From assembly GCF_024700885.2 (NCBI RefSeq), contig NZ_CP117016.1: a DNA stretch of 64,000 nucleotides; one strand, 5' to 3'. Of this stretch, positions 40,870-47,956 are shown one piece after another. This DNA is from Escherichia coli. Lineage in GTDB: Bacteria; Pseudomonadota; Gammaproteobacteria; Enterobacterales; Enterobacteriaceae. The position numbers were made by a program, and so were the translations under genes. The first letter of the stretch is position 1, and the number at the start of each line of letters is the position of its first letter. The notes beneath the pieces are model-generated. The model saw nothing but the letters and a program-made list of their open reading frames with translations, ran no database searches and was not told the origin of the DNA.

Positions 40870-43344
40870 TTATTGCGGAGTGACATCCTGAGGTCGCCAC
40901 CAGTATGTCTGGTTAAACTCTTTCTTCGAACGTTGCTCCATTTTACGCAAATAGCCTGGTGAAAAATACTCCTGCATCTGGTTAAAGATCATGTGATCGA
41001 GAGCCGCCTTCAAGTACCAGAGATTCGCACCAGGCATCAAACCTTTCCCCAGCTTCACCAGATCACCACCAGTCTGCTCACTCTTCCCTTCCACAGCATT
41101 TAACGGTATGCCCTGAGCAATCTTCACTACGTCATCAACCAGACCAGCTACCGGGCCAAGCATCGACGCCAGCGCGCCGCTTCCGTACCTAGTGTGATCT
41201 GACAATAAAAAGTCACCGTACAGGCCAAGACCACCACCTTTCAGTAGAGCACCAAGCCAGAATTTTGCGGCATCTTCTCCTGTCATCTCTCGAGGATTAC
41301 GACCAGACGCAAGGTCGTTAAGTTGCTGCGACAAAGCGCCAAGAATGGTCGTACTGGCAATAAACGTCGCAATATATGCCGCACGCCCACCAGCAGACGG
41401 CATACCCATAGCGCGTGACCAGTGACGCATAACAACCGAGATAGGGAACGATTTAAACAGGAAAACACTTCTCGTTAATTCACCTTTCCATGTTCCACGC
41501 TGAATACCAGAACCGGTTATCAGTTGCTCACGTGCTCCCGGTGTAATAACAGCCATATCAACTTCTTCAGTTACGGCACCGAGCAGTTTACGCATTGCCT
41601 CAAATTTCACGCGTTCAGGCTCACCAAGATGTTTAACTGCTGAATCAGGGATACGCATAATGCTTTCCGGCGTCAGCATCGTATTATTACCGTTCCCCCA
41701 GTCCTCCTGTTGCGCCAACTTCCATACGCTCCAGTCTGTGTCAGTAATCCCTTTGCTTTTCAGGATACGAAAATCAGAGTCATCAAGGCTACGAAGGTCT
41801 GGTGTCCGTGACACTACTTCTCCCAGGCTTCCCATCATGGTTACGCCATAGGCGCGCTTGTGCGCATCTGACCATGCTGTAAGCCCACTGGCACGCATTA
41901 CCGCCGTTGCCGCCCAACGAGACACTGACGGCCCCATATTATCCATCGCCCAGCGGTTAACGCTGCCAAGTAGAGATTCCATCGCCAGACCAGCGCGGCG
42001 CGCCCGCACAAGTTCTGTACGGTTCGTTGGGTCCATAGCTTCAAGCTGGTTGCGGAATAACTGGTTCATTGGAAGGTTGGTAACCTTCGCAGACAGATAC
42101 ATGGTTCCAAGATCAGAGAACGATGACAGCAACGCGGATCCGAGCCTGCTGGCAACCAGCCAGTTGCGGATATTGTCAGACCATCGCGCGATGTGCGGAT
42201 TCGCTACAGGCTGTGTCTTTCCGGAAATAAAGTTGTACAGATTCTCTGTGTTGTTCGCCAGCCGCTCGACTTTACCGGTTTTACTCGGGTTAGCTGTTGC
42301 CGTTTCTGCCTTAACCTGATCAAGAAGGGAGCGGAAAACATGATCGGGGTTTGGACCATATGTTTCCACCAGAGCAATATCTTTACTGATACCTTCCAGG
42401 TGACCGACCATGATTTCCCATAGAGAGCGATCGCCATAAAGTTGTTGATATTGGAGATAGGAATCTGCATCTTTGAAATGTATCTGTCGTGATGCATTAC
42501 CACGGTTAGCACGTGCGCCGGAAATTCGCATTCCGGTATCAGTAAGCTTATTCAGCCCACCAGTAGCGATCGTGTTATAAGCCTCTCCAAGAAATGCAGA
42601 CAACTCGGCATCGTTCATCAGTTGTCCATCGGCTCTGGTATAATATTTGCGATCCAGCTTACCTATAACATCGCTAACCCACTTATCCTTTGATACCGCC
42701 CCAACCTTTTCCATAGAATGATGTTGAGGGATCCCCCAGTTTTCGAGATAGCCAATGTCCCCACCAGCATCATTAAACCGGCGGCGCAGCAGCTCTGCAA
42801 CTTCTCTCCACGCTTTAGCACCTTTTCTTGCTTTAGCATTGCCAGTATTTTGCCCCCGCATTTCATATACCAGGTCACGTACGCCCGCTTCATCTTCAAA
42901 CAGGCCAAAAAAGCGAGGATCAACTGCTTCAAATGCCTCCTGCAATTGACTCAATGCATAATCACGAGTGGCTTTTGTTCTGGATTCAACAGAGAGGAAA
43001 TTCGATTTACCGTCTGCATTAAAAGCAATAGTACGGTTAAGAGCGCCAAGTTTCCCATCAGCCCCTTGATAGCTATTGATAAATTTATCCAATCTCTGAC
43101 GTGCGGCTATAGTGAGAGCCACACGACGTTTCTTTAATGCCGCTTCTCGCTGTAATTCTTCAGATGCCAATTGTGCTGCACGATACAACCGTTCTGATTC
43201 GGAAAGTTGTCGCCACGACATCGGGTCATCACGAGCAATGGAGCGCATATTTCGATAAATGCGGTCTTCAATGTTCTGTATTTCTCGCGCCGTTAACGTG
43301 CGCTGCGCCGCCTGCTGGACCGCTTGTATACATTCCTGTCTCAT
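40870..43344 (-). CDS. Large virion protein (824 aa), probable internal/ejection protein
   Basis: Large ORF in contiguous virion block between tail genes and tailspike; no recognisable enzymatic motif. Confidence 0.5.
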   Translation of the reverse strand: MRQECIQAVQQAAQRTLTAREIQNIEDRIYRNMRSIARDDPMSWRQLSESERLYRAAQLASEELQREAALKKRRVALTIAARQRLDKFINSYQGADGKLGALNRTIAFNADGKSNFLSVESRTKATRDYALSQLQEAFEAVDPRFFGLFEDEAGVRDLVYEMRGQNTGNAKARKGAKAWREVAELLRRRFNDAGGDIGYLENWGIPQHHSMEKVGAVSKDKWVSDVIGKLDRKYYTRADGQLMNDAELSAFLGEAYNTIATGGLNKLTDTGMRISGARANRGNASRQIHFKDADSYLQYQQLYGDRSLWEIMVGHLEGISKDIALVETYGPNPDHVFRSLLDQVKAETATANPSKTGKVERLANNTENLYNFISGKTQPVANPHIARWSDNIRNWLVASRLGSALLSSFSDLGTMYLSAKVTNLPMNQLFRNQLEAMDPTNRTELVRARRAGLAMESLLGSVNRWAMDNMGPSVSRWAATAVMRASGLTAWSDAHKRAYGVTMMGSLGEVVSRTPDLRSLDDSDFRILKSKGITDTDWSVWKLAQQEDWGNGNNTMLTPESIMRIPDSAVKHLGEPERVKFEAMRKLLGAVTEEVDMAVITPGAREQLITGSGIQRGTWKGELTRSVFLFKSFPISVVMRHWSRAMGMPSAGGRAAYIATFIASTTILGALSQQLNDLASGRNPREMTGEDAAKFWLGALLKGGGLGLYGDFLLSDHTRYGSGALASMLGPVAGLVDDVVKIAQGIPLNAVEGKSEQTGGDLVKLGKGLMPGANLWYLKAALDHMIFNQMQEYFSPGYLRKMEQRSKKEFNQTYWWRPQDVTPQ

Positions 43345-43349
43345 TTAAT

Positions 43350-45152: not shown

Positions 45153-47956
45153 TGCGGAATATCTCCGGAGAATCTCTGACGCTTCTGTGTCAGATTAAGA
45201 ACAACGGGAGAACCATCATCTTTCAGCAGATAACCAGTACCAAGTTTCACCAGGTACTGACTATCGCCGTAACTTTGCAAACCATACTGACCAGGCGGTG
45301 TTTTTATCCCGGAGCCGACAACTTGTTCATTCCAAGCCTGATTAACCTGCTTATCGAATTGCTCTGCAGACATTCCCCACGGCAAAAGGACATTCCCCAT
45401 TCCGTTATAGTCATGCACGCCACCTGTAGCTACGTTAACAGCCTGTTTCCAGATATCATTGTCAATTTCGCCTGATACCACGCCTTTTTTCGCCATCACA
45501 CCAGCGTAATAATCCTTTGCGATCTCGTATGCCATTGATGCCCCCTGAGCGTCACCAGCAAATGCATCCTTCACCATGTCAGAAAACTCAAGGCGAAGAT
45601 CAGCATCTTTAGGCATCGGAATACCTTTCGCATCATCAGTACCTTTACGAGCCGCCGCGCCAGCAAGAATTGTCTGCGCAGCGGTTTCAGGAGACACGGA
45701 AACATCCGGATTAAACCAGTTTTTTTCTGCCAAAATACCACCAGGCTTATCCATCAGTATCCCGGCAACGGCAGCAGATGGAGCGTTGGCACTGATCTGC
45801 TGTAGTGCTGACATATACACCTGCCCACCACCAGTGCTCTGCCTGATGGTATCGAGATATGCTGCCTGTTGGGAAACTGGAGCATCACGAAAGAAAACAC
45901 CGATCTGATTGGCCTCGTCTTTGGAAAAGAACGTCAGTGGAGTGCCATATGACTTAGCAAGGTCACTGACCTGAGCGGCACGCAAGGCAACGCTCTGTCC
46001 AAAGTTATCCTTATTGCTCATGTCGATAGGCTTTGCCTGTCCGGAGGCAAGAGAGAACTGCACAGGATCCGACTGCCGCTGCTTTATCACCTGATTTGCA
46101 GCCGAAACAACGTTGTCATAAAGAGCTGCTCGTGCCGCATAGCCCTCCCCTGTATCACCAGTATCCGGGCGTAATTGCTCAACATATGCTGTAATGCTGC
46201 TTGTCGGCATGTTGCGGAAAGAGCCTATATACTGTCCAGCGATCTGCGTATTCTTAAACTCGGTATATCGCAGGTTTCCTTCTCTGACTCCATAAGCTGC
46301 AATAAAATCATCCTCACCAGGTGGGTTAGGAAATTCAACGCCACGCATATATGCAGCTGTCGCATCGCGAACCTGGCTGTCAATCATCGTTTTATATTCA
46401 GCCTGCTGCTGCCGACGCAGTTGATCCGCCTGTCGCATAAAACTTGCCTGCGCCTCAGGAGATGCCGCATCGAATGCTGCATTACCGGTATAGCGTTTGG
46501 TGTTGGTTGGAATTGTTGATAAACCAAGTGCTGCACTGACACCAGCAGTTAACTGCTGATCACTGTATGGCTGGCTACCGTTCTCATGATGGATAATGGC
46601 TGCACAAAGCGCCTTCAGGGTATCAGGATTTGATGCATCGAGAGGCTCATCAGCAGAAACGCCAAGTTGTTCGCACACTGCTTTGATATATGACATAGTG
46701 TCATTTTTATCAGTAGGCGGTGCCCAGCGATTAATTATCTCGCTGACTGTATCAATACCCTGCCGCTGATACGACATCAGGTTCCGCCCTAATGCACGAA
46801 TCCCGTGTTCAGGTGTTTCGAATTTAGCAAATCGACCATCATCACCGGTCTGGCCTACCCACGGATTAGTTTTGCTGTATTCGAGATTTCCTGGGTTGTT
46901 ATTACGGATACCGCGAGCACCACCTTTTACGTAATACTGATCCTGCTGTTCGTGAAGTTTCTCAGCATAGGCGGTCGCATTCTCAGGGTTATCGAATATT
47001 CCAAGGTGTTTTCCAGTTTTTTCATACAGAGCAATAGCTTCGTCATCGGAAAGCAATTTTCCATCATCACTGACGGTGGGAATGAGAACTTCTCCAGCTT
47101 CCGTGCCTATAGAAATTGTTCGAACGGTACTGATAGTCCCATCTTCATTTTTGACAGATGGGCGGTTGAAGAGATTAATATTTCCTTGAACAACCATTCC
47201 CTTTGTGGACTTTGGCTCTCCACCATAAGGATTAACAATAGCCCGCTTTGATCCAGCAGCAGTATCGCTTAGCTCGCCATTACTTTGGATAAATGAGATC
47301 GCATTGTTTGCCGACCACTGGGACAATGCTGCATCAGCAACCTTCTCTTTAAACTCGATTTTCTTGGCCTGTATTTGCTCGTCGCTCCAGCCATGTGCAG
47401 CACCGTACTCCTCAATTTGCTGGAAAGTTTGCTTATTAGCCAATATGTATGCGGCATTGTCGCCATACAATGCTGCGGCATTTTTACCATTGTTCAGCAG
47501 CGTCGCCTGAAACTGACCTTCTTCGTAGGCATTAATTTGCCCTATCTCGTGCCGCCCGGCCTGCGTAGTGAACTGAATGCGCTGCTGCTGTGCCTGCTGC
47601 ATGAAAGCATTACGAGTCTGTTCATCCGGCAGCGACATAGCCAGTTGTTCGACCTGAGCATCAAACTGCTGCGTATACTCCTGACCTTTTCCAATAGCAT
47701 TTTTCCCTTTCAGGTTAAGCAATCCTGTTTCAGTATTATTCAGCAGATCACTGCTTATCTGACTGAGGTTAAGAGATGCCTCCTGAGCCAGAGCGATATT
47801 GGCACGCTGTTTTGCCTGCCCCAAAACATCAATTGCCTCTGTCCCTGCCCGAACAAAAGCATCACTAATACCTGGCTGAGAAAACGTCTGCAAGCCTGCT
47901 GACTGAACTCCACGACTCTCAACCTGACGTCCGGATACTGTTGGTACGACTGGCAT
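45149..47956 (-). CDS. Large virion protein (about 935 aa) with a possible peptidoglycan-hydrolase-like segment
   Basis: Start moved to ATG at 47954-47956 (GGAGG RBS, overlaps upstream stop); contains [12 protein letters not shown]...[29 protein letters not shown] segment. Confidence 0.5.

Follow-up and report, generated by a model that had tools for sequence, protein, structure and literature searches.

In phages T7 and PhiM1, the ejectosome genes (gp14, gp15, and gp16 and gp48 to gp50, respectively) lie between the tail and fibre genes and encode a small gp14-family protein followed by two large helical proteins, with one member of each set carrying a peptidoglycan hydrolase. T7 gp14 is the outer-membrane component of the ejectosome. 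In the Salmonella phage epsilon15, the core leaves the capsid and forms a periplasm-spanning tube (PMC12391199; PMC8954989); Hardies et al. (2016) classed its gp17 as T7 IVP-D and its gp15 and gp16 as IVP-C-like (PMC4819975). A hydrolase of a different type is found in the Hafnia phage Enc34: the lysis-cassette gene ORF39 (PHA02564; PDB 7Q47) encodes a lysis enzyme of 26 kDa whose C terminus forms a membrane domain. The catalytic domain of this enzyme has been crystallised and is enzymatically active, and Trp79, Tyr95, and Glu131 were singled out as catalytically important (PMC8943055). Yutin et al. linked the P5 protein of phage PM2 to the same structure.

The genes described here (Table 1) are located in a 64,000-nucleotide stretch of the Escherichia coli contig NZ_CP117016.1 (the window). 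By DNA identity and gene order, the region is a Uetakevirus prophage, i.e., a temperate podophage of the phiV10/epsilon15 type in the E. coli chromosome. Over the whole interval, it is 97.6 to 98% identical to phiV10, PAS61, and their relatives (97.7% over 95% of the interval for phiV10 and 97.9% over 100% for PAS61; 97.7 to 98% for the two), and the annotation is syntenic, with the same gene order, sizes, and flanks, although neither phage has the same tailspike. The epsilon15 genes follow the same order but are far more distant. The chromosomal neighbours are yfgI-pdeF-ppx, and this context is 100% identical to that in E. coli MLI114, whose identical prophage has a full set of morphogenesis, lysis, and replication genes. 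The three large genes are orthologues of phiV10 p18 to p20, matching epsilon15 gp15 to gp17, and it is highly probable that they encode large internal virion ("ejection") proteins of this integrated podophage. With much the same confidence, these proteins and the products of two small upstream genes, one in the gp13 position and one of the T7 gp14 family, can be regarded as an ejectosome block, flanked by the tubular-tail genes on one side and the tailspike on the other. None of the three large proteins is recognised by Pfam or NCBIfam, and RefSeq (MLI114) labels all of them "hypothetical protein." Each of the three open reading frames (ORFs) has a full-length match to a PHROG family with an E value of 0, which, together with their lengths, excludes chance ORFs by far.

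Table 1. Features of the predicted ejection-protein block and its neighbours (window coordinates)
Feature	Position	Strand	Basis or remark
57-aa ORF (GTG start), small and very hydrophobic, with two predicted membrane helices	40687..40860	-	ORF list; hydropathy maxima 2.2 and 2.5
Predicted 824-aa ejection protein, orthologue of phiV10 p20 / epsilon15 gp17	40870..43344	-	Profile alignment with T7 gp16 (IVP-D, tetrameric ejection protein): homologous to its C-terminal half
gp16-aligned region, aa about 285-700 of the 824-aa protein	41245..42492	-	hhalign; against T7 gp16 residues about 800-1175
Predicted 600-aa ejection protein, orthologue of phiV10 p19 / epsilon15 gp16	43350..45152	-	PHROG 1145, full-length
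Predicted 935-aa ejection protein, orthologue of phiV10 p18 / epsilon15 gp15	45149..47956	-	PHROG 992, full-length, E = 0
C-terminal module of the 935-aa protein, aa 481-935	45149..46516	-	98% identity to phiV10 p18; no family recognised beyond PHROGs
Predicted peptidoglycan hydrolase domain, Enc34/PHA02564 type, aa 347-480	46517..46918	-	phmmer against PDB
Predicted catalytic-site residues W411, Y423, E458	46724-46726, 46688-46690, 46583-46585	-	Aligned to Enc34 Trp79, Tyr95, Glu131
Inserted cassette, 104 aa, aa about 236/243-346	46919..47230	-	Encodes a highly conserved ∼85-aa domain
N-terminal module of the 935-aa protein, aa 1-242	47231..47956	-	93% identity to phiV10 p18 aa 1-242
181-aa T7-gp14-family internal virion protein	47956..48501	-	Pfam T7_gp14 and PHROG 418
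GGAGG ribosome-binding site	47963..47967	-	6-nt spacer to the ATG at 47956; read from sequence
154-aa small internal virion protein, T7 gp13 position, first gene of the block	48501..48965	-	PHROG 308 "internal virion protein," E = 3.9e-62

The ORF list and translations contained the three large genes (824, 600, and 935 codons) expected from the first-pass annotation, which had already placed them between tail and tailspike genes and suggested podovirus core or ejection proteins; the gp14-family neighbour and the orthology and gp16 homology described here argue for that assignment. The overlapping stops and starts it described are found at two junctions: the TAA stop of the 181-aa gene overlaps the ATG of the 935-aa gene (TAATG), and the 935-aa and 600-aa genes share ATGA, whereas the 600-aa and 824-aa genes are 5 nt apart. 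The 935-aa gene, listed there as the third, is on this strand transcribed first, followed by the 600-aa and 824-aa genes. Its ORF spans positions 45149 to 48031, giving 960 aa from an upstream GTG versus 935 aa from the ATG, which is also the annotated start in phiV10 and PAS61 and follows the strong ribosome-binding site that had been pointed out. The 75 nt upstream of this ATG had been considered noncoding; they form, in another frame, the 3' end of the 181-aa gp14-family gene.

The upstream flank consists of an 823-aa "tail protein" of the epsilon15 gp12/tubular tail B type, followed by the 154-aa and 181-aa genes; a homologue of epsilon15 gp11 (201 aa) is also encoded upstream of the block, and a 1024-aa tailspike is encoded downstream. 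The 154-aa protein is the orthologue of phiV10 p16 and epsilon15 gp13 and shows a weak match to Pfam Phage_T7_Gp13 (E = 0.089). The 181-aa protein scores above the gathering threshold of Pfam T7_gp14 (PF24072; 31.2 bits versus a cut-off of 27; E = 2.5e-7) and is named "virion core protein, T7 gp14 family" in the RefSeq annotation of E. coli MLI114. The 57-aa ORF, which starts 9 nt downstream of the 824-aa gene, is possibly the last gene of the ejection block. Its phiV10 counterpart, p21, is annotated as a "putative integral membrane protein"; a small ORF is annotated at this position in PAS61 and none in the RefSeq entry of MLI114.

The 824-aa gene is the last large one in the block, just upstream of the spike gene, and the same gene order is seen in BcepC6B, VP2, and the Pelagibacter phage Skadi-7. 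Profile-profile comparison with hhalign aligned the 824-aa family with the T7 gp16 family over 330 columns (probability, 80%; E = 1.4e-5), including a common F-K-S-F-P/T-I motif, versus E values of 0.2 to 0.8 in nine controls (the reversed profile and eight shuffled ones). By this alignment, the protein is homologous to T7 gp16, specifically to the C-terminal half of the latter, and the result independently reproduces the classification by Hardies et al. In Pfam and PDB searches, the 824-aa protein showed no hydrolase match and, unlike its T7 homologue, no N-terminal lytic transglycosylase domain; that domain is phage specific and so not universal (reviewed in PMC8954989). Gly/Ala-rich hydrophobic segments are present in this protein, as they are in the 600-aa protein. 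The latter has a Gly/Ala-rich, hydrophobic N-terminal half (aa ∼100 to 280, with hydrophobic segments at aa 122 to 141, 163 to 195, and 255 to 280, and 36 to 38% Gly plus Ala over aa 101 to 250) and a charged, helical-looking C-terminal half. Being only 29.6% identical to epsilon15 gp16, it diverges fast, and it had no relative in Pfam, NCBIfam, or PDB. Neither the 600-aa nor the 935-aa protein showed likeness to T7 gp15 in Pfam searches or, the hydrolase domain aside, in PDB searches. Both can be equated with IVP-C by position only, as in the work of Hardies et al. (2016), who likewise failed to confirm the IVP-C role (PMC4819975).

It is also conceivable, if rather unlikely, that the three proteins are permanent external parts of the tail (the adsorption apparatus, as its hub or central tube) and serve DNA delivery in a pre-assembled tail without being ejected. 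Guichard 2013 reportedly assigned gp15 and gp17 of epsilon15 to the central tube of that apparatus and not to an internal core; the internal proteins of this phage are also said, in Kropinski 2007 and Guichard 2013, to be present in purified virions and to be released on infection. In PMC12391199, Guichard et al. (2013) are cited as assigning epsilon15 gp15 and gp17/16 to a tail packaging/injection device, and Hardies et al. describe the proteins of the transient epsilon15 tube as "not clearly identified" (PMC4819975). However, the block is syntenic with the genes for the T7 internal proteins gp13 to gp16, one of its products is a bona fide gp14-family protein, the 824-aa protein is homologous to gp16, and the tubular tail B and epsilon15 gp11 homologues encoded upstream can supply the hub. 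Moreover, the epsilon15 internal core exits on infection (PMC8954989; PMC12391199).

On the preferred reading as an ejection protein, the 935-aa protein combines four modules: an N-terminal module, an inserted cassette, a hydrolase domain, and a C-terminal module. PAS61 has the identical architecture (100% coverage of the gene in DNA at 97.9% identity), and outside the cassette the protein is 93 to 98% identical to phiV10 p18. PHROGs 1044, 19141, 36437, and 10475 match only aa 1 to 240, so the N-terminal module is common to several other phage protein families; PHROG 873 spans aa 337 to 644 and PHROG 35810 spans aa 735 to 935. The C-terminal module had no match in PDB or Pfam.

The segment that had been flagged as murein-hydrolase-like includes a GIRNNNPGN...NRWAP motif at aa 349 to 413 (window positions ∼46718 to 46912). 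[quoted passage not shown] All three Enc34 catalytic-site residues are kept, and the sequence homology to Enc34 ORF39, with conserved Trp, Tyr, and Glu, is clear; the phiV10 record already notes the likeness to PM2 P5. Judged by this homology, the segment is a real peptidoglycan hydrolase domain of the Enc34/PHA02564 type, and its fold is predicted from 7Q47 to be all-helical, similar to the α-lobe of lysozyme. The domain is carried by 818 phage records. Kayfunavirus, a T7-like group, has it (52 to 56% identity) at the N terminus of the gp16 homologue, annotated as "internal virion protein D" or "internal virion protein with endolysin domain," whereas this prophage has the hydrolase on one protein and the gp16-like region on another. 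The block further differs from those of T7 and PhiM1 in having three large proteins instead of two, and in that the hydrolase is set into the middle of the first of these and not at the N terminus of the gp16 homologue, and is not an SLT lytic transglycosylase.

Members of the same domain family serve as lysis endolysins in Enc34, Siskin, and other chiviruses, and the overlapping PHROG families are labelled "endolysin," so that this domain could be viewed as the lysis enzyme of the phage, or else as a catalytically dead structural remnant. Either role seems very improbable. In contrast to the small Enc34 enzyme, the domain resides in the middle of a 935-aa predicted virion protein within the ejection block; W411, Y423, and E458 are all conserved, and close homologues are found at the N terminus of gp16-type ejection proteins in Kayfunavirus. 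For lysis, the prophage has a separate and complete cassette at positions 33666 to 35463, with a GH19 endolysin, two holins, and a DUF2514 protein resembling Rz, and the virion hydrolase therefore most likely serves entry. The view that the whole prophage is a decaying remnant and its genes are nonfunctional relics can draw on the window ending inside the prophage and on the lack of an integrase in the examined MLI114 stretch, which has replication and packaging genes, but it is hardly credible, given the intact ORFs with coupled starts and good ribosome-binding sites, their 98 to 100% identity to those of the plaque-forming phages PAS61 and phiV10, and the whole morphogenesis, lysis, and replication set in MLI114.

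By analogy with T7, PhiM1, and epsilon15, the ejection proteins would be packaged inside the capsid on the portal and, once the tailspike has bound and cut the O-antigen, would be expelled through the short tail. The gp14-like protein could then insert in the outer membrane, the 935-aa protein could open the peptidoglycan locally with its glycosidase domain of the Enc34/PHA02564 type, and the 600-aa protein and the gp16 homologue might build a DNA channel across the periplasm and inner membrane. The packaging, ejection, and enzymatic activity of these proteins and their distribution over the envelope layers are thus proposed from the related systems; lysis at the end of infection would be left to the holin/endolysin/Rz cassette.

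The inserted cassette sets the 935-aa protein apart from phiV10 p18, which has 837 aa and a short linker, ARRAVADSDSSER, in its place. Among the 324 E. coli genomes that have the gene for the 935-aa protein, only 13 carry the cassette. The consensus of its ∼85-aa domain reads GNIDLxxRPVVxNxDGSISTVRS...TGKHLGIF...YAxxLHxxQ (the stretch between the first and second parts is left out). This domain had no match in Pfam (including the LPD and MuF models), NCBIfam, or PDB, and a fold comparison gave no significant match. It occurs in 5,253 clusters at 50% identity, whose carriers are phage ejection and polyvalent proteins, and lies within ejection proteins of unrelated podophages; it is also found alone, adjoining portal or ejection genes, and adjoining an ART-PolyVal giant protein. 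In 9 of the 15 carriers longer than 1,500 aa, it is located inside the first 181 residues. Large multidomain phage carriers, comparable to the polyvalent proteins (Iyer et al. 2017; PMC5512222), pair it with LPD38, LPD23, SLT, VanY, Peptidase_M15_3, 2H/Acb1-like, pyrophosphatase, and GNAT domains; the 935-aa protein itself is a predicted structural ejection protein and not a typical effector array. Tentatively, the cassette may represent an autonomous domain, undescribed so far and very widespread, of proteins that phages package or inject. Like MuF in polyvalent proteins, it could be a portable module for docking the carrier protein in the capsid or ejectosome; alternatively, it might contact an envelope or host component that is universally conserved while the DNA enters the cell. 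The reading of the three large proteins as ejection proteins is already known biology, and the remainder is ordinary for this phage group; the one new point is this small, very widespread, and still unnamed extra domain.

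The window is a stretch of E. coli chromosome that shows 100% identity to strain MLI114 and carries a Uetakevirus (phiV10/epsilon15-type) prophage adjoining the yfgI-yfgH-pdeF-ppx-ppk genes. In megablast searches of phage genomes, the interval is 97.6-98% identical to Escherichia phages phiV10, PAS61, phiv142-3, ZX5, and the O157 typing phages and 78-82% identical to Enterobacter phage Tyrion and Salmonella epsilon15-like phages. The ORF list and translations bear out the three consecutive large genes of the first-pass annotation, which lie, as had been proposed, between the genes for an 823-aa tail protein (upstream) and a 1024-aa tailspike (downstream). 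Their transcription order is 935-aa, 600-aa, and then 824-aa gene, so that the 935-aa gene, previously counted as the third, is the first to be transcribed. The overlap of stops and starts ascribed to the whole series does not extend to the 600/824 junction, which has a 5-nt spacer. The longest ORF of the 935-aa gene begins at GTG 48031. The start favored earlier, ATG 47956, has a GGAGG motif 6 nt upstream, overlaps the TAA of the preceding gene, and is also where the phiV10, PAS61, and RefSeq annotations begin the gene. The 75 nt upstream of it are not the noncoding sequence they had been taken for; they are the 3' end of the 181-aa gene in another frame. In the phiV10 annotation, p18, the orthologue of the 935-aa protein, is a "head protein" similar to the PM2 structural protein P5; p19 is described as similar to epsilon15 gp16 and p20 as similar to BcepC6B gp17. 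The upstream epsilon15 gp12 counterpart is a homologue of tubular tail protein B (Hardies et al. 2016, PMC4819975).

Features of the prophage region, in window coordinates
Feature	Position	Strand	Remarks
823-aa tail protein			upstream in transcription order; epsilon15 gp12
154-aa protein			upstream in transcription order; PHROG "internal virion protein"
181-aa protein			upstream in transcription order; above Pfam T7_gp14 threshold
935-aa gene	47956-45149	minus	ORF list and translation
Inserted cassette	46919-47230	minus	about aa 236/243-346 of the 935-aa protein
600-aa gene	45152-43350	minus	ORF list and translation
824-aa gene	43344-40870	minus	ORF list and translation
Tiny, very hydrophobic ORF	40687-40860	minus	two predicted membrane helices; 9 nt past the stop of the 824-aa gene
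1024-aa tailspike			downstream, past the tiny ORF and two small genes; epsilon15-type N-terminal domain, C-terminal Peptidase_S74 chaperone domain
Low-GC module	35644-39893		40-45% GC
Phage_holin_8-like	35059-35463	minus	lysis cassette
Phage_holin_3_7	34764-35072	minus	lysis cassette
GH19 endolysin	34145-34774	minus	lysis cassette
Rz-like DUF2514 protein	33666-34148	minus	lysis cassette; embedded Rz1-type ORF 33674-33949
tRNA-Arg (anticodon TCT)	57570-57646	plus	inside the prophage

Scans against Pfam and NCBIfam returned no match for the 935-, 600-, or 824-aa protein, and only PHROGs and PDB sequences were informative. In the PDB sequence search, residues 347-465 of the 935-aa protein matched the catalytic domain of the Hafnia phage Enc34 endolysin (7Q47, E = 4.9e-17), and residues 347-496 matched the N terminus of a 1295-aa "Gp29" (9vvp, E = 4.5e-38), an entry that a literature search did not identify. 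The Enc34 domain (family PHA02564), which has no Pfam or NCBIfam model, is a biochemically active muralytic domain whose all-helical fold is akin to the lysozyme alpha-lobe; Glu131 is its catalytic residue, and Tyr95 and Trp79 are important (PMC8943055). The aligned residues of the 935-aa protein, E458, Y423, and W411, respectively, are all conserved. These matches and the retained residues substantiate the earlier impression that this segment resembles a peptidoglycan hydrolase. The domain was found by tblastn in 818 phage records. Outside the epsilon15 group, its nearest relatives (52-56% identity) are located at the N termini of Kayfunavirus proteins annotated as "internal virion protein D" or "internal virion protein with endolysin domain"; remoter matches include chivirus endolysins (Siskin, Enc34-like), PM2 P5-like proteins, and various structural proteins.

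Since the prophage has its own complete lysis cassette (33666-35463), separate from the virion hydrolase, context and analogy make a function in entry the most plausible one for the embedded domain, comparable to that of the T7 gp16 transglycosylase, whose motif is important at low temperature or in stationary-phase cells. In BcepC6B, a member of the epsilon15 group, the gene for the 764-aa gp16, located directly upstream of the homologue of gp17 (class IVP-D, that of T7 gp16), is annotated as an "endolysin." Given this adjacency, a hydrolase-bearing ejection protein beside the gp16 homologue may be a group-wide feature, with the type and position of the hydrolase varying. About half of the IMG/VR relatives of T7 gp16 align only from residue ~144-159 on; in these, the N-terminal transglycosylase domain is replaced. 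The tblastn results suggest that the Kayfunavirus replacement is the same Enc34-type domain as in the window. If true, Kayfunavirus would cleanly illustrate how hydrolase domains are swapped on ejection proteins.

Sequence-level searches with the 824-aa protein identified only PHROG 684 ("virion structural protein"). By tblastn, its family includes BcepC6B gp17 and proteins of Vibrio phages VP2/VP5, Liberibacter phage SC1, Pelagibacter podophages ("putative internal virion protein"), and others; the same phage set has been classed as carrying T7 IVP-D (gp16) homologues (Hardies et al. 2016, PMC4819975). A word-indexed search and the first IMG/VR scan yielded only relatives with at least 85% identity, of no use for a profile, and the necessary diversity was obtained by re-ordering the seed alignment with a distant member first. 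The resulting alignment, with 81 sequences drawn from phage and IMG/VR loci and filtered to less than 75% identity, was compared by hhalign with a 20-sequence alignment of the T7 gp16 family, giving a probability of 80%, an E value of 1.4e-5, and a score of 58.6 over 330 columns. Reversed and eight column-shuffled templates, used as controls, scored 16-23 (E = 0.2-0.8). Residues ~285-700 of the 824-aa protein align with ~800-1175 of T7 gp16, and the motif FKSF(P/T)I is common to both.

The 600-aa protein, as well as the 935-aa protein outside the hydrolase domain, has no relative in Pfam, NCBIfam, or PDB. The former diverges fast, being only 29.6% identical to epsilon15 gp16. It contains 36-38% Gly+Ala across residues 101-250, a charged C-terminal half, and moderately hydrophobic segments at residues 122-141, 163-195, and 255-280; similar hydrophobic segments are found in the 824-aa protein (residues 651-675, 696-715, and 721-746). 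By position and analogy, these hydrophobic, Gly/Ala-rich features would suit proteins that change fold to form a channel across a membrane. On the same grounds, the 935- and 600-aa proteins could be the equivalents of T7 gp15 (IVP-C), a homology likewise unconfirmed by Hardies et al. (PMC4819975). A short segment of the 600-aa protein (residues 219-274) is conserved, with 41-57% identity, in Ralstonia and Liberibacter podophage proteins that otherwise cannot be aligned with the 600-aa protein; one of these is annotated as a "putative endolysin."

The epsilon15 core has been reported to exit the capsid, forming a periplasm-spanning tube (PMC8954989, PMC12391199). These reports, together with the analogy with T7 and PhiM1 (PMC8954989, PMC11440229), are the basis for the mechanism proposed here. 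Five proteins (935, 600, 824, 181, and 154 aa) would be packaged on the portal, expelled through the tail once the tailspike engages the O-antigen, and reassembled as a trans-envelope conduit, in which the gp14-like protein would reside in the outer membrane, the muramidase domain would clear the peptidoglycan, and the 824-aa gp16 homologue would reach the inner membrane. The main rival explanation assigns gp15 and gp17 to the external central tail tube, where, according to a citing paper, Guichard 2013 reportedly placed these epsilon15 proteins; epsilon15 virion proteomics and genetics are said to be covered by Kropinski 2007 and Guichard 2013. The reading of the three products as podovirus ejection proteins, which had been advanced from gene position, is supported by the phiV10 orthology, the T7_gp14-family neighbor, and the hhalign match of the 824-aa protein to gp16.

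Several further features surround these genes. The tiny ORF that follows the 824-aa gene corresponds to phiV10 p21, a "putative integral membrane protein," but is left unannotated by RefSeq in the identical genome; it may be a further component of the ejectosome or of superinfection exclusion. The low-GC module combines the tailspike, with its epsilon15-type N-terminal anchor, divergent receptor-binding part, and C-terminal Peptidase_S74 chaperone, with an oppositely oriented 374-aa gene (an acyltransferase in RefSeq); it looks like a swapped serotype-specific module for adsorption and O-antigen modification, unlike those of both phiV10 and PAS61. The tRNA-Arg gene, also annotated in E. coli MLI114, separates the terminase region from the portal region and is encoded on the other strand from the structural genes. 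The strong negative AT skew (-0.19 to -0.23) at 4000-12000 proved ordinary: the region is the hyf (hydrogenase 4) operon, whose products include membrane subunits.

The 935-aa protein exceeds phiV10 p18 in length by 98 aa; in p18, a 13-residue linker takes the place of the 104-aa cassette (43% GC versus 49% in the rest of the gene). The gene region is present in 324 of the 5,426 complete E. coli genomes, and only 13 of these 324 have the long allele. The conserved part of the cassette, an inserted domain of ~85 aa, shows 24 invariant positions across 34 diverse homologues (52-65% identical); it had no sequence match in Pfam, NCBIfam, or PDB and only a weak one to a PHROG of unknown function. 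An AF2 model (pLDDT 82.8) shows two helices after a small sheet and has no significant neighbor in PDB. The invariant D-G-[S/T] in its hairpin is reminiscent of SEA-type sites, and a self-cleaving module could be envisaged, speculatively.

When 1.84 billion representative proteins were searched with a profile, the inserted domain was detected in 5,253 clusters of phage ejection or polyvalent proteins at E<=1e-3, and in 1,993 at E<=1e-30; the proteins range from 100 to 2,500 aa. Of the top 146 carriers, 48 have it at the N terminus, 77 internally, and 16 at the C terminus, and in 5 it stands alone. Nine of the 15 carriers that exceed 1,500 aa have it within their first 181 residues. Its partners in 42 scanned carriers include SLT, VanY, Peptidase_M15_3, Phage_lysozyme2, LPD38, LPD23, pyrophosphatase, 2H/Acb1-like, and GNAT domains, never MuF. 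Known peptidoglycan-hydrolase domains occur seven times in this set. A role as a dedicated hydrolase partner was rejected, as only 4 of the top 146 representative carriers contain both domains. Genes for stand-alone versions directly follow a P22-type portal gene, separate a terminase gene from a likely portal gene, adjoin a lysozyme gene, belong to a P22-like cluster of ejection genes, or lie upstream of a gene for a 5,550-aa ART-PolyVal protein. Among cultured phages, the inserted domain is confined to ejection proteins of podophages: the Bas106 "DNA transfer protein," the Klyazma "IVP-C-like protein," and those of a Rhizobium phage and the SPN1S group. Judging from these genomic and domain contexts, the domain may be a portable module of proteins that are packaged in the capsid and injected, serving in docking or in entry or host interaction.

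Overall, the earlier observation is confirmed and its interpretation supported; the three large genes represent a known kind of feature in a known phage lineage, with very little that is new. Given the lack of Pfam and NCBIfam models and the RefSeq label "hypothetical" on all three products, the assignments could be propagated to hundreds of prophages of E. coli, Salmonella, Citrobacter, and Enterobacter: the 935-aa protein as an ejection protein with a PHA02564 muramidase domain, the 824-aa protein as a T7 gp16/IVP-D homologue, and the 181-aa protein as a member of the T7 gp14 family. The inserted domain, as far as could be found the only element here not already described, ranks with the more abundant domains of phage virion proteins that still lack a name, and it is the sole item on which further work could pay off. 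PAS61 carries the cassette and phiV10 lacks it, and the two form a natural pair for probing its role.
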